64,000 bases of DNA from Dictyostelium discoideum (lineage: Eukaryota), in contig CM000151.3 of NCBI GenBank assembly GCA_000004695.1, positions 5,920,001 to 5,984,000 of the forward strand, in the 5' to 3' direction. Below, in pieces: positions 16,245 through 26,897 of the stretch. A program made the position numbers and the translations under genes. How positions within the stretch are numbered: the first letter of the stretch is position 1; each line of letters begins with the position of its first letter. A model generated the notes under the pieces. The model worked only from the letters and a program-made list of their open reading frames with translations, did no database searches and had not been told where the DNA came from.

Positions 16245-18905
<2,661 letters not shown>

Positions 18906-19681: not shown

Positions 19682-20063
19682 ATGGGTGATGATAATACTA
19701 ATAATACATCAATAACTAAAAGTTCACCAACCGATGCAATGGGAGGTGGTTGCCCAATTGCACATGATATTAATCCAGCCAATCATATGTATAAACCAAA
19801 TCAAAATCCACACCCAGATCAAACTAAACCATTGTCAACCGAAAGAATTACATCAACCATTCCAAGAACTGAAAAAGATAATTGGCAATATCCTTCACCA
19901 CAAATGTTTTTCAATGCAATGAAAAAGAAACAATATGAACCAAAAGAAGAGGATATGAGTGTTGTCATTTCAATTCATAATACTGTAAATGAAAAATGTT
20001 GGGAAGATGTTTTACAATGGGAAAATGATTATAAAGAGTATGTTTAATAATAATAGTAACAAC

Positions 20064-20659: not shown

Positions 20660-23600
20660 TTATAAACTAAATAATTTCATTAATAAATGAATTGTTAAAG
20701 TTACATCTAAAGTTATACCTTCTAATGGGAATTCATCAATATGATTTTTTGATTTTTCCAAGAGATCATCTAATTCTAATTGTAGGGATTTTGTGATTGG
20801 ACCAAATTTAGCTTCAATTTCAAATAAACCAGGACCTAAAGATTTGATATAAATTTTTGTTTTACTAAAACTTGATTCTGGTAATTCACAACGAAGTATC
20901 ATACCTTTCTTTACAAGATCCAATAGAATGAATTTATGAGGTTTAATTGTTGATTTATCTTTTGGTAATGGAGTTAATTGAGTTGTTTTTAATTGTTTCT
21001 TTACGATTGCTTTTTCAAGTTGTTCATTTTGGAATTTAGTTAAATGTTCAAGAGGGGCGGCATCAATTCTAATCGATTTCAAAAGACTATGAAGACGAGT
21101 TAACTCTGATCTCATAACTTTATTCTTTCTTAGAATTGTAGCCAACTCTTTTTCAACATCCAATAGGAAGAGATTGAAATTATCAGGACCACCACCATCC
21201 AAACCATCGGTACATTGATCACGATCAAATGTTCTTAAACGTGAGATTAATTCATTGGATTTATTGATTATTGATAGATTCTCTGAAGAGTTACTACCAG
21301 TTTTAAAGTAATCGATAGCTTCACGAATGATCTCAATGGTATTGGCATTCTTTTTTGGTGGTTGACTCTTTGAAAGGATATCGATCATCCAAAGTTTACA
21401 TTCTTTCCAAAGATCAATGGATTGTTCATTCAATTGATCTAAACGATTGATAAAAGAGAGTTGAATTGAACGATCACCTTGTTCAGGTAATTGAATTGGG
21501 AAATCGATTTCATCTAAATACTTTTTCAATGGCCAATTTTGTGATTTTTGACTAGTCATGATGGCTGGAGTCGATTGTCTTGCGGCTGTAACATATTTAC
21601 CTTTATCCAATTTTGAGTTTATAGCTCTTTCTGCTAAATTTTGAATTGATTTCTCAGAGACCTCTTTCAATGTACCAATATCTTCAAGATCATAAAAGTT
21701 TGAAAGAATAGTTTCATGTAACCAAATGATCTCAGAGATATTAATTACTGAACAAAATTTAATATTATTTTCCAACATGATTTCATTATATTCGCTATAG
21801 TGAATTAATTCATCTAAATCTGGTACTTGTGCCACTTGACAAAGGAATTTATCAGCGGATGATGAATTTTGAATGATCCATTTATTGAGATAAACAGTTG
21901 GGAAATAATTCATCCAAGGTTTTTCAGAGAAAACCGATTGAATTAAACGTGATAATTGTGATAGATTGAAACGACTTTGTTTTGTAATGTATGGATGTTG
22001 AAGTAATACTAATTCATTTAAAAGATCTGGTGATGAAATAATTGGAATAATGAAACGATAAATAATTAAAAAGTAAGAAATATACTTTTCACGATTCTCT
22101 GGTAATTGTTTTGAACGATTATTATTTAAAGTTATATTAGCTGTGGTACTACCACTTTCATCACTTGAAATACCACCGCCATTGTGGTGATTGTTGGTAT
22201 TATTGGTTGGAAAAGCATATTTTGATTTCTCTGCAATTATTCTACAAAGATAACGTAATTGAACTGGTAGTTGTTCAATTGATTTTGTTATACGTTCTAA
22301 GAATGCATTACCAAGCTCAACCAATTGAAGACATCTTGAATTGAAAATAGATACTACATCATTATTTGCCATCAATTGTTCAAATGTTTGATCTAGTGTT
22401 TTCTTTTCACTCTTTTTACCATCTTTTAATTCTTTAGCTATTTGAATCTCTTTTTGAATCCAATAAGGATCAAAATTTAAATTTAAATCAGTTTGATCTA
22501 AAACTTTTAAAATCAATGGAGTTATAATCTCTTTTAAATATTTGAACCCTTTTTTCTTAAAATATTGGTAAAGTAATTTCATTGGCACCGATTCTGATTG
22601 AAGGAAATCTTGTAGGGTTTCAGAGTACTTAATTTGATATTCAATACCAACGGTTAAGGCTTTTAGGAATAAATCCTCTTCACGTGGTGAAATTTCATAT
22701 GGAAACATTGAAAGGAGGAGATTATCAAAAGTTTTACCCATTTGATTTCTATCTAAAAGGAATAACAGCTTACCCATTACCTCTGGTCTGGTTTGAAGAT
22801 AATAAAATAGTGATTGATAGTTTTTCATTTTATTTGGATCCAAACCATTTGGTACACCTTTAACTGGTTTAATGATTACTTTCTTTTGTTTCTTTAGTTT
22901 TTTACCTTCATTTTTATTCTCCAATACACGATCGATTGATTTAGTAAGTTTTTTCAATTCTGCTTGATGATGAGTTGTATTTCTAAGTTCACCAATGATA
23001 TTTCTTTTCAATTCTGTTATATCACCAATTAACTTTGTCATATTATCAGTGAGTGAGGTATCATCGATCATTCTCTTTTGAATTCTAATACAAATTTTAT
23101 ATTCTTTATTGTATTCTATACGTTCTAATTCACTTTGTCTAGTTATACGTTCACGTTCACGTAATTCCCTTTCGAGTCTTTCTGCTTCTAGACGTAAGGC
23201 TTCTTCACGCTCACGTTCAATACGTTCTTCTTCGAGACGTTCAAATTCTTCACGTTCAATACGTTCACGTTCGATACGCTCCATTTCTTCACGTTCAATA
23301 CGTTCTTGTTCGAGACGCTCATACTCTAGACGTTCTTGCTCTTCAAGTTCTTCACGTTCACGCTCTATACGTTCACGTTCAATACGTTCACGTTCTTCAT
23401 ATTCTAAACGCTCACGTTCAATACGTTCCAATTCCTCTAGTTCAATACGCTCACGTTCTAAACGTTCTTGCTCGAGACGCTCTTGCTCTAAACGTTCACG
23501 TTCTAAACGTTCACATTCTAAACGCTCCTGTTCGAGACGTTCACGTTCAAGACGCTCTTGTTCTAATCTTTCTTGTTCTAAACGTTCACGCTCTAAACGT

Positions 23601-24833
23601 TCACGTTCAATACGCTCCTGTTCAAGACGCTCCTGTTCTAAACGTTCACGCTCTAAACGTTCAAGTTCAATACGTTCTTGTTCAATACGTTCCATTTCTT
23701 GTCGTTGTTTCTCTAAACGTTCTCTCTCTAAACGTTCACGCTCTAAACGTTCTTGTTCCAAACGCTCCCTTTCTAAACGCTCCCTTTCTATACGTTCACG
23801 TTCTAAACGTTCACGTTCTAAACGCTCTTGATCAGTTCTATGCTTTTCTTCCCTCTCTTTACGTAAATTTGCAATTGCAGCCTCTGAATTGAATAATGAG
23901 GCAACCAATGCTAAATTTAATTTTGGATGACCTAATGCAATATCAGATGGTGTAAGGAAACATTTTACACCAATCTTTTCACATGCCTTTGTAATTAACT
24001 CAGCTCTTGAGAATAGATTTGATTCTGAATGAATTGTTGAAACTAAATTCTCAAATTCAATTGGTACTAATTGATGAAATAAATGTGAATAAACTACACT
24101 ATCTTGAATATCCTCACTGAAATTACTAATTCTTCTTTCACAACCTTCTTTCTCTAAATGATAATTTACCCATCTTAATAAAATTTCCTCTGCTGAATGT
24201 TCATCTGATTGATTTTGTGTATTATCAACTTCTTTAACTGAATCTTCTTCAAATAATATTTCTAAAATTTCATTTGCATTTTGATTAACTTTTGATAATA
24301 AACCTTGCTAATTAATTAATTTATAAAAAAAAAATAATAATAATTAGATTAATAATTAAATATAATATATTATATAATAATAATAATAATAATAATTACT
24401 TTAATAATTTGCCAAATTACACCTAATACTAAATAGGGTGTTGCATTCATTAAATCTTGTGCACCAATATTTACAATAATACAACCAACTTCAATTGCAT
24501 TTTTAATTACTATATTTTGATTTTGAATCATTTCAAATGGATTCATTTTATTTTTTATACATAGTCCTTTTAAATTAACTTGTGTTAAAAATAATGATTC
24601 CATTAATTTACTAAAAAAAAAAAAAAGAAAAAAATAGATTAATTATTATTATAAATATAAAAATATGAAAGAAAAATAAGTATATAATTTTATATTACTT
24701 TAGTAAAACACCATCTGTACAATTTACAAATAATTGATCAGTTGATGGGTCAATTGGAACATAATTTGATAAAACATCCTCTTGATCTATCAATCTTTCT
24801 GTTATAAATTTTGAATAAGCAACTATTGTTTAG

Positions 24834-24872
<39 letters not shown>

Positions 24873-25217
24873 ATACATATATTGTATAATTATTAAAGTA
24901 AATTTCATTAATTTTAAATGTTTTATATTGTATTATTATTTTTAAAAAAAAAAAATATATTGTTAATATTAATATATATAAGAATAATTTTAAATGTTTT
25001 TTTTTTTATTTTTATTATTTTTATTTTTATTTTTATTTTTACCTTTTTCTTCTTCAGAGAATGTATGAACACTACCATCCTCAGCATTTGCATTGATTAA
25101 TATATTATCTTTTTTAGATATTTTTGCACTTGCTAATACTTCTTGAGTAATGAATGGAGGGTCCATTTTCTTGCTACCTCTATTTAAAGTATTATATCGA
25201 CTATCAGTATATGTCAT
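20660..25217 (-). CDS. A 1385-aa protein that joins a fimbrin-type tandem CH actin-binding domain to an ERLE-repeat coiled coil and an IQGAP-type RasGAP-related domain + RasGAP_C. It has 4 exons: 25217..25043, 24822..24699, 24610..24400 and 24307..20660.
   Basis: Exon 1 reads MTYTDS...HTFSEEEK + G|GTAAAAAT. Exon 2 reads (V)[40 protein letters not shown] + AA|GTAATA. Exon 3 reads NKLMESLF...[34 protein letters not shown]|GTAATT, which is CH1 (plastin: [29 protein letters not shown]). Exon 4 begins after ...AATTAG| and gives CH2 ([44 protein letters not shown]...[12 protein letters not shown] vs plastin [43 protein letters not shown]...KLNLAFVANLFN). Exon 4 then flows into about 200 aa of ERLERERLE repeats and a GRD that matches IQGAP1 ([17 protein letters not shown] vs LFYLLQTNPTYLAKLIF; [14 protein letters not shown] vs LLYYRYMNPAIVAPD; [16 protein letters not shown] vs DVPELQDKFNVDEYSD). 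All splice phases are consistent. Confidence 0.75.
23140..23830. repeat. Degenerate tandem 18-24-nt repeats (cgttcacgttctaaacgttc...) that encode the ERLERERLE coiled-coil array of the IQGAP-like gene
   Basis: The periodicity is visible directly in the sequence. The antisense ORF 23109..23831 (RSRS-rich) is an artefact of this repeat. Confidence 0.85.
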
Positions 25218-25271
25218 TTTTGTATAAATTTATTTTATTATTATAATTATTATAATTATTATTATTATAAA

Positions 25272-25314
<43 letters not shown>

Positions 25315-25317
25315 AGG

Positions 25318-25369
<52 letters not shown>

Positions 25370-26897
25370 CAAAAAAAATAAATAAATAGGAAATAAATTG
25401 AATTACAAATAAAAATAATAATAAATGGAAAAATAAAACAAAAAAAAAAAAATAAAAAAATAAACAAAAAAAAATAAAATAATAAATAAACAATAAAAAT
25501 TATTTTAAATAAATTATTATAATTATTATTATTATTAATAAATTTTATTTATTAAATTCGTATAATTATATTTACTCATAAACAAATTGGGAAAAGGTAT
25601 ACTTTTATTATTGGTATTTTTAATTTCTTTTTTATATTATTATGTACGATGTTCAATTTGAAAGGAAAAAAGATAAAAAAAAAAACAAAAAAAGGTAATC
25701 TAGTTTGATTTTAGAAAAAAAAAAAAAAAAACTACCGTTATTCTTTTATATAGATAAGTTATTTATAAATTTGTTTATTTTTATCGTTTTTCTTATTATT
25801 ATTATTAGATATTGTAAACTAAAAAACTAAAGGAAAAAAAAAAAAAAAAAATTAAAAATAAAATAATGGAAAAAAAAAAAAAGGGGGAAAAAAAAAAATC
25901 TATTAAAGAAATTCCTTTATTAATATCTACCACACACCCCCCTATCTTATTTTTTTTTTCTTTTACTTTCCATATTTAAACCAAAACTAAAATTTGTGTA
26001 CGTGAATGTGTGGTTGCGTGTGTTTTGTTGAATGTGAAAGTATTTTTGTTTTAAATGTGACAAAAACAATAATATCAATAATGATAACTAAAAATAGAAA
26101 TTTGATAATAGCAATAAATGGGGATTACAATAATATTGATCATTTTACATATTCATTTTTTTATTATATATTATTATTATTATATATTAATTATATTATT
26201 TTATTATTATTATTATTATTATTATTTTAATTATTATTATTATTTATTATTAACCAGTAATAACAAATTAACTTACAGAGAGATGTTGATATTTTTGTGT
26301 GGTGACTTTTTGGTAAAAAAAACAAAAAATATTTCGAGATAAAAATAAGTTTATCAAAATGAAAAAAAAAAAAAAAGAAAAAAAAAGAAAAAAAAAGAAA
26401 AAAAAAAAAAATTGATTTTGGGATATTAATAAAAATTTCTTTGAAAAGCTTCCTCATTTTTAAAAACTCTCTTGATATTAAAAAAATAACTTATAAATTA
26501 ATTAAAATTTATTTTTATAATAGTCTAAATTATTTTTTTTTCATTTTGTTGCGGGGATAGAAAAAATCTAGTTTGCAATTTTTTTTTTTTTAAAAAATTT
26601 AAATCTTTTTTTTTTTTTTTTTTTTTTATTGATTATATTATTTTTTTAAAAAAAAAAATTGATTTATTTTTTTTTTATATAATATTTTTTTATTTTTTTT
26701 TTTTTTGTGAGTCTATTTTTTGAAAATTCCATTTTTTTTTTTTTTAATTAATCATACTTTTGATTTTCCAGTCATTTTCAATGATATGAGTAAAGCATAT
26801 CAAATAGGTTTTTGGACGACAAAAAAAAAAAAAAAAAATAAAATAAAAAATAAAAAAAAAATAAAGATTTTCTTATTAAATTATTAAAAACTAAGTA

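Follow-up and report, generated by a model that had tools for sequence, protein, structure and literature searches.

Within a 64,000-nt window of the Dictyostelium discoideum genome (assembly GCA_000004695.1, contig CM000151.3, positions 5,920,001 to 5,984,000; all coordinates below are counted from the first base of this window), a minus-strand gene between positions 25217 and 20660 encodes a protein with a pair of calponin-homology (CH) domains at one end and an IQGAP-like module at the other. Joining four exons (25217-25043, 24822-24699, 24610-24400, and 24307-20660) produced a 4158-nt frame with no internal stops, which encodes 1385 amino acids (aa) followed by a stop codon. An exact-sequence look-up matched this product at every residue to EAL69616.1 / XP_643564.1 / UniRef100_Q552W4, the record of DDB_G0275731 from D. 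discoideum AX4. The four-exon gene of about 1385 aa proposed from sequence in an initial annotation is therefore exactly the annotated gene, with every junction correctly placed. DDB_G0275731 is iqgD, located on chromosome 2 (PMC13628810), Q552W4 has been named as IqgD (PMC12871552), and the known iqgD locus contains three introns (PMC13299636). Compared with the annotated Dictyostelium IQGAP-related genes, the product thus falls on IqgD (DdIQGAP4) without any difference; intron number and domain description agree as well, and we found no evidence contradicting the identification. We are highly confident that the locus is iqgD and that it represents an ancient dictyostelid fusion between one CH1-CH2 pair, of the type found in the first actin-binding domain (ABD1) of fimbrin, and the C-terminal half of an IQGAP, comprising the GAP-related domain (GRD), RGCt, and CT. 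The two partners are joined by a Glu/Arg-rich segment that spans 136-255 residues across eight orthologues, which were collected in a homologue search with the full-length protein as query. The gene is laid out as follows:

25043-25217, minus strand: exon 1 of iqgD, with the ATG at 25217, encoding residues 1-58 and the first base of codon 59.
24823-25042, minus strand: intron 1, 220 nt, GT..AG, 6% G+C.
24699-24822, minus strand: exon 2, the first part of CH1, with the alignment to plastin-3 unbroken across the junction.
24611-24698, minus strand: intron 2, 88 nt, GT..AG, 8% G+C.
24400-24610, minus strand: exon 3, the remainder of CH1, ending on a codon boundary at K170.
24308-24399, minus strand: intron 3, 92 nt, GT..AG, 3% G+C.
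20660-24307, minus strand: exon 4, a single open frame with the CH1-CH2 linker, CH2, the Glu/Arg-rich block, GRD, RGCt, CT, and the stop codon (20660-20662).
23882-24205, minus strand: CH2, residues ~205-312 (best Pfam stretch, residues 208-310).
23111-23875, minus strand: Glu/Arg-rich block, residues 315-569, 255 aa.
21698-22834, minus strand: IQGAP-type GRD, residues ~662-1040 (Pfam RasGAP at residues 725-964, E = 2.2e-42).
22082-22207, minus strand: Asn/Gly/Ser-rich low-complexity insertion in the GRD, residues ~870-912.
20948-21430, minus strand: helical RGCt region, residues ~1130-1290, boundaries approximate.
20663-20947, minus strand: extreme C-terminal CT or 'RGC' domain, residues 1291-1385, ~95 aa.

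The locus lies in very AT-rich surroundings, from which the minus-strand coding islands stand out at 26-43% G+C; the introns have 3-8%. Retention of intron 3 would bring an in-frame TAA after 9 codons. A prokaryote-style list of open reading frames (ORFs) sees only a 1082-aa frame of iqgD (20660-23908). Near-identical proteins from D. citrinum, D. dimigraforme, and further isolates of D. discoideum fall into the 90% cluster of Q552W4, together with a 1082-aa Logan entry that is equal in length to the bare exon-4 ORF.

At the N-terminus, CH1 (residues ~55-175) is spread over exons 1-4 and forms, with CH2, an actin-binding domain of the fimbrin ABD1 type. Pfam calls CH twice in IqgD (E = 6.8e-29) and RasGAP once, the combination that the initial annotation had predicted. 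In comparisons with PDB sequences, residues 45-316 aligned end to end with residues 113-381 of plastin-3, that is with its ABD1, at 182.7 bits, whereas plastin-3 ABD2 scored only 17.8 bits against the same CH pair. The best matches were plastin-3, T-fimbrin, and fimbrin ABD1 (E = 7.7e-61 to 1.4e-52, the latter for T-fimbrin 1aoa), and yeast and Arabidopsis fimbrin likewise ranked after plastin-3; plectin, utrophin, dystrophin, and alpha-actinin trailed by many orders of magnitude, and IQGAP CH chains were absent from the PDB matches at E ≤ 0.01. A database search with the N-terminal 318 aa returned plastins or fimbrins in 78 of 78 cases, at 31-44% identity, although its matches reached no more than 557 aa and did not include even IqgD itself, which leaves it uninformative on the fused architecture. 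The pair is thus of the plastin type and not of the IQGAP type, as first supposed. The likeness to plastin and fimbrin covers ABD1 over its full length, but these proteins also have CH3-CH4 and N-terminal EF-hands, both of which are missing in IqgD: Pfam finds only the two CH stretches and no EF-hand (E ≤ 1). Since IqgD has no second ABD, it cannot bundle filaments in the manner of fimbrin. The Glu/Arg-rich block follows CH2 directly.

Further downstream, the GRD is closest to those of IQGAP1 and IQGAP2. A single-sequence PDB search with this domain returned only 3fay (IQGAP1, E = 5.2e-31) and 5cjp (IQGAP2, E = 5.5e-24), and a profile built from the eight orthologue GRDs scored IQGAP1 and IQGAP2 at E = 4.8e-50 and 8.7e-44, compared with 1.1e-6 for neurofibromin and 1.4e-3 for p120GAP. 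Gln740 of IqgD aligns with the Thr of the motif IVTGNP that in IQGAP1 takes the place of the arginine finger. Across the orthologues the position is occupied by Q, Q, T, T, A, S, T, and A, and in none of the eight by Arg, while Arg921, part of a YRF motif, is invariant in all of them. The Gln at the finger position indicates that IqgD is not a GAP. In published assays, an IqgD fragment spanning residues 311-1385 had no GAP activity on human Rac1 and instead slowed intrinsic GTP hydrolysis (PMC13628810). Neither observation supports the role as a RasGAP or Ras effector that had been suggested for the protein. The low-complexity insertion within the GRD is, among the aligned orthologues, restricted to D. 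discoideum and D. firmibasis; a published review of IqgD describes a longer GRD insertion under a different numbering and reports that it lowers the predicted local distance difference test (pLDDT) score of the GRD.

The extreme C-terminus is related to IQGAPs through its fold. When the C-terminal 300 aa were compared as a profile with PDB sequences, nothing meaningful came back, and the IQGAP kinship of CT is visible by fold only. For the last 301 aa, AlphaFold 2 (AF2) gave a model with a mean pLDDT of 59.7, usable only for residues 1291-1385 (pLDDT 83-90). For this CT domain, the best Foldseek match was 3iez (IQGAP2 RGC; E = 1.7e-7, TM-score 0.85, root-mean-square deviation (rmsd) 1.6 Å). 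The top three matches were all IQGAP structures (3iez, IQGAP2; 3isu, IQGAP3; 1x0h, IQGAP1), with E = 1.7e-7 to 1e-5, target TM-scores of 0.74-0.85, and rmsd of 1.6-2.9 Å, and the next match followed at E = 0.04. The predicted structure thus gives the CT domain the IQGAP RGC fold. In RGCt, two observations weigh against the IQGAP assignment: Pfam RasGAP_C (PF03836) is not called in D. discoideum IqgD even at E ≤ 10, and the AF2 helices of RGCt are of low confidence. Among the orthologues, RasGAP_C is called in four of the eight C-termini (best E = 3.5e-5), and AlphaFold 3 predicts RGCt in IqgD (PMC13299636). Of the GRD and RasGAP_C that the initial annotation matched to IQGAP1, the GRD therefore holds, with IQGAP1 and IQGAP2 as its nearest relatives, and the CT fold is IQGAP-like, but RasGAP_C is not recognized by Pfam in the D. 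discoideum protein.

Set beside mammalian IQGAP1, IQGAP2, and IQGAP3, IqgD has in common the GRD similarity, the missing arginine finger, and the CT fold, as well as binding to F-actin and to Rac1-GTP without GAP activity (PMC13628810). The mammalian proteins carry one type-3 CH domain, whereas IqgD has the CH pair of the fimbrin ABD1 type, and IQGAP1 is dimeric, whereas fragments of IqgD are monomeric (PMC13628810). IQ and WW domains gave no Pfam match in IqgD at E ≤ 1, a regular-expression scan of the whole protein for the IQ core [FILV]Qxxx[RK] found none, and the published description of IqgD likewise lacks both IQ motifs and a WW domain (PMC13628810). Where IQGAP has coiled-coil repeats, IqgD has the five-residue Glu/Arg repeat. 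The short IQGAP-related proteins of Dictyostelium, DGAP1 and GAPA, consist of the GRD-RGCt-CT half and bind Rac1 and cortexillins, as does IqgD (PMC13299636). However, DGAP1 and GAPA have no CH domain and depend on cortexillins for their contact with actin, and in IqgD, unlike in these two proteins, Rac1 and cortexillins bind exclusively of each other, so that no four-part complex forms (PMC13628810).

An architecture of this kind could be an artefact of the gene model, with the CH exons belonging to a separate, fimbrin-like gene upstream. Such an error is suggested by the three introns that the 5' part requires, and by the bacterial-style ORF call and the Logan entry, which both stop at the 1082-aa frame of exon 4. 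Yet CH2, the Glu/Arg-rich block, the GRD, and the C-terminus all lie within the uninterrupted fourth exon, and the CH-GRD fusion is therefore independent of any splice. The three junctions (EEEK/VAYSKF, DGVLL/NKLME, and WQIIK/xGLL, the slash marking the splice) lie where the eight orthologues show invariant residues, and the same three regions align to plastin-3 without gaps. Independent annotations in other species also arrive at proteins of 1249-1645 aa with both the Pfam CH and RasGAP domains, in D. firmibasis, Polysphondylium violaceum, and Heterostelium album, and likewise in Tieghemostelium lacteum, Cavenderia fasciculata, and Acytostelium subglobosum. This distribution makes the fusion older than the divergence of these genera. 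(Beyond the eight orthologues, the full-length search matched unrelated Glu/Arg-rich low-complexity proteins, including PEGA-domain proteins and acinus, which we disregarded.) Published work adds that iqgD coding sequences have been expressed and their products confirmed by mass spectrometry, and that a second, intronless copy of iqgD is identical in sequence to the spliced gene (PMC13628810). These data settle the splice junctions, for which the initial annotation had asked for transcript evidence. Single-exon continuity and the published protein work together refute a separate upstream CH gene, to which we assign only a negligible probability. The intronless copy is the L2 retrogene of strain AX2-214, the intron-containing locus being L1; the spliced exon 1-exon 2 junction sequence that would mark L2 is absent from the window with up to two mismatches allowed.

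The initial annotation knew of no described protein that combines a plastin-type ABD with an IQGAP GRD, but IqgD has already been published as one. According to later papers that cite this work (PMC13628810, PMC13299636), the protein was originally named a fimbrin-related RasGAP by Pikzack et al. in 2005, and its chimeric organisation was part of the inventory of Friedberg and Rivero in 2010. A 2026 account presents IqgD as a chimera in which a fimbrin CH duplex is coupled to the GRD-RGCt-CT triad of IQGAPs (PMC13299636). Its two fimbrin-type CH domains (CHf1 and CHf2) correspond to fimbrin ABD1; a fragment of residues 1-592 binds F-actin directly and with low affinity; deletion of the CH domains abolishes cortical localisation; and the GRD and CT bind either active Rac1A/B/C or cortexillins I/II in a mutually exclusive manner (PMC13628810, PMC13299636). 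Knockout of iqgD weakens substrate adhesion, lowers the uptake of surface-bound beads, and impairs growth on bacterial lawns (PMC13628810, PMC13299636). The fusion is therefore not new, since the literature already covers the gene as well as its chimeric architecture and cell biology. The only novelty left concerns the structural nature of the Glu/Arg-rich block, whose possible existence as a single helix is mentioned in neither PMC13628810 nor PMC13299636.

This block was described in the initial annotation as about 200 residues of ER repeats continuing from the CH pair within one exon; the continuity is borne out, but the length is 255 aa. It consists of 40% Glu and 27% Arg, with no Pro and no Gly, and its DNA is a tandem array of 15-nt (5-aa) units with higher-order periods of 30-75 nt. 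Hydrophobic residues recur with a period of 5 (power 2.8) and give no signal at 3.5 (0.11), and the best heptad register reaches an a/d occupancy of only 0.34. Because a Leu at every fifth residue advances by ~140 degrees per step on an alpha-helix, no hydrophobic seam forms; the mean hydrophobic moment is 0.22 in the block, compared with 0.46 in the HN helix that comes after it. Charges, by contrast with shuffled sequences of the same composition, are strongly ordered: opposite-charge i/i+4 pairs number 98 against 58.5 ± 5.6 (maximum 77) in the shuffles, and same-charge i/i+4 pairs 6 against 60.9 ± 5.7. The orthologue blocks (136-255 aa) have kept this composition (31-40% Glu, 24-28% Arg, almost no Pro or Gly) but not their length.

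Two further observations concern the sequence of the block and its immediate border. A 240-aa Ser/Arg-rich ORF on the plus strand (23109-23831) is an antisense reading of the GAA/CGT-rich tandem array and not a gene. Directly after the block, where the published HN helix begins, stands the motif KEYxIxxRIQK (residues 571-581, ~23075-23107, minus strand), in which K571, E572, I575, R578, Q580, and K581 are invariant in 8/8 orthologues. Its sequence recalls the beginning of an IQ motif but does not have the canonical IQxxxRGxxxR spacing.

ER/K-type single alpha-helices are found in myosin VI/X, caldesmon, and similar proteins, and it is from the general properties of these helices that we infer what the block might be. 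Like them, it is rich in Glu and Arg, dense in opposite i/i+4 charges, free of Pro and Gly, without a heptad seam, and placed in a monomeric context; it differs in using Arg nearly always in place of Lys and in having Leu or Ile at every fifth residue, with ~22% hydrophobic residues. Judged from the sequence, the block is more likely to be such a helix than a coiled coil, and it would then extend up to ~38 nm (255 x 0.15 nm). That a block of such conserved (ERLEx)n composition is a stable single alpha-helix of ~20-38 nm, serving as a ruler between an actin-binding head and a Rac1- and cortexillin-binding IQGAP module, has in our judgement an even chance of being right. Several points weigh against it. 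The proportion of hydrophobic residues seems higher than in other ER/K helices, and the single-helix proposal comes from sequence features. The larger IqgD fragment gave some extra mass species (PMC13628810), and the published papers draw IqgD without a coiled-coil region and do not discuss the block (PMC13628810, PMC13299636).

The initial annotation had called the block a coiled coil, and dimerisation through it would make IqgD an actin crosslinker with two heads, comparable to dimeric IQGAP1. The length of the block, its helix propensity, the absence of Pro and Gly, and the regular spacing of Leu or Ile speak for a coiled coil, and in mammalian IQGAPs the CH domain is followed by a region of coiled-coil repeats (PMC13628810). 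But the hydrophobic period is 5 and not 3.5, the heptad a/d positions are poorly filled, and the low hydrophobic moment reflects Leu residues spread around the helix. Moreover, mass photometry found the fragments 1-592 and 311-1385, both of which include the block, to be monomers (PMC13628810). We consequently consider a dimerising coiled coil improbable. A fast-evolving, largely disordered low-complexity linker, arising as a by-product of tandem repeat expansion, appears somewhat unlikely. It would fit the 15-nt array with its higher-order periods, the variation in orthologue length, and the abundance of simple repeats in D. discoideum, where poly-Asn and poly-A/T tracts lie near the gene. 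Against drift of this kind, every dictyostelid group retains both the composition and the strict i/i+4 charge pattern even though the sequence itself turns over, an indication that the helical charge pattern is under selection. If the block is a single helix, it would stand at the place taken by the coiled-coil, WW, and IQ regions of mammalian IQGAPs.

Other genes in the neighborhood of iqgD look like ordinary housekeeping genes:

16245-18905, minus strand: ORF for an MCM helicase subunit (MCM P-loop domain, E = 6.9e-102).
27660-28535, plus strand: ORF with a Thg1-type tRNA-His guanylyltransferase domain (E = 5.9e-33).
28745-30205, minus strand: ORF for an ALIX V-domain protein (E = 2.7e-76).

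Next to the 3' end of iqgD, a plus-strand ORF at 19682-20047, which runs into a poly-Asn tract to ~20180, matches positions 81-176 of the 299 in the Pfam Cyto_heme_lyase profile (E = 1.4e-28) and probably encodes the beginning of a cytochrome c heme lyase, in a gene that converges on iqgD. Upstream of the iqgD ATG, the DNA at 25230-25500 (minus strand) has 6-9% G+C, with a run of ~50 T, after which come A10 and (TAA)n repeats, and looks like typical Dictyostelium intergenic DNA.

Taken with its published binding partners, the layout of IqgD suggests a monomeric tether. Its one low-affinity fimbrin-type ABD would sit on an actin filament, the long charged helix following the ABD would act as a spacer of set distance, and the IQGAP C-terminal half would hold Rac1-GTP or, alternatively, cortexillin. 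With a single ABD and no dimerisation, IqgD alone would not crosslink filaments, and the actin crosslinker envisaged in the initial annotation is hard to reconcile with one ABD and monomeric fragments. If the Glu/Arg-rich block is a rigid single helix, IqgD would be a spacer-tether rather than a crosslinker, and the length of the block, which varies from species to species, would set the distance at which Rac1 signalling takes place from the filament.

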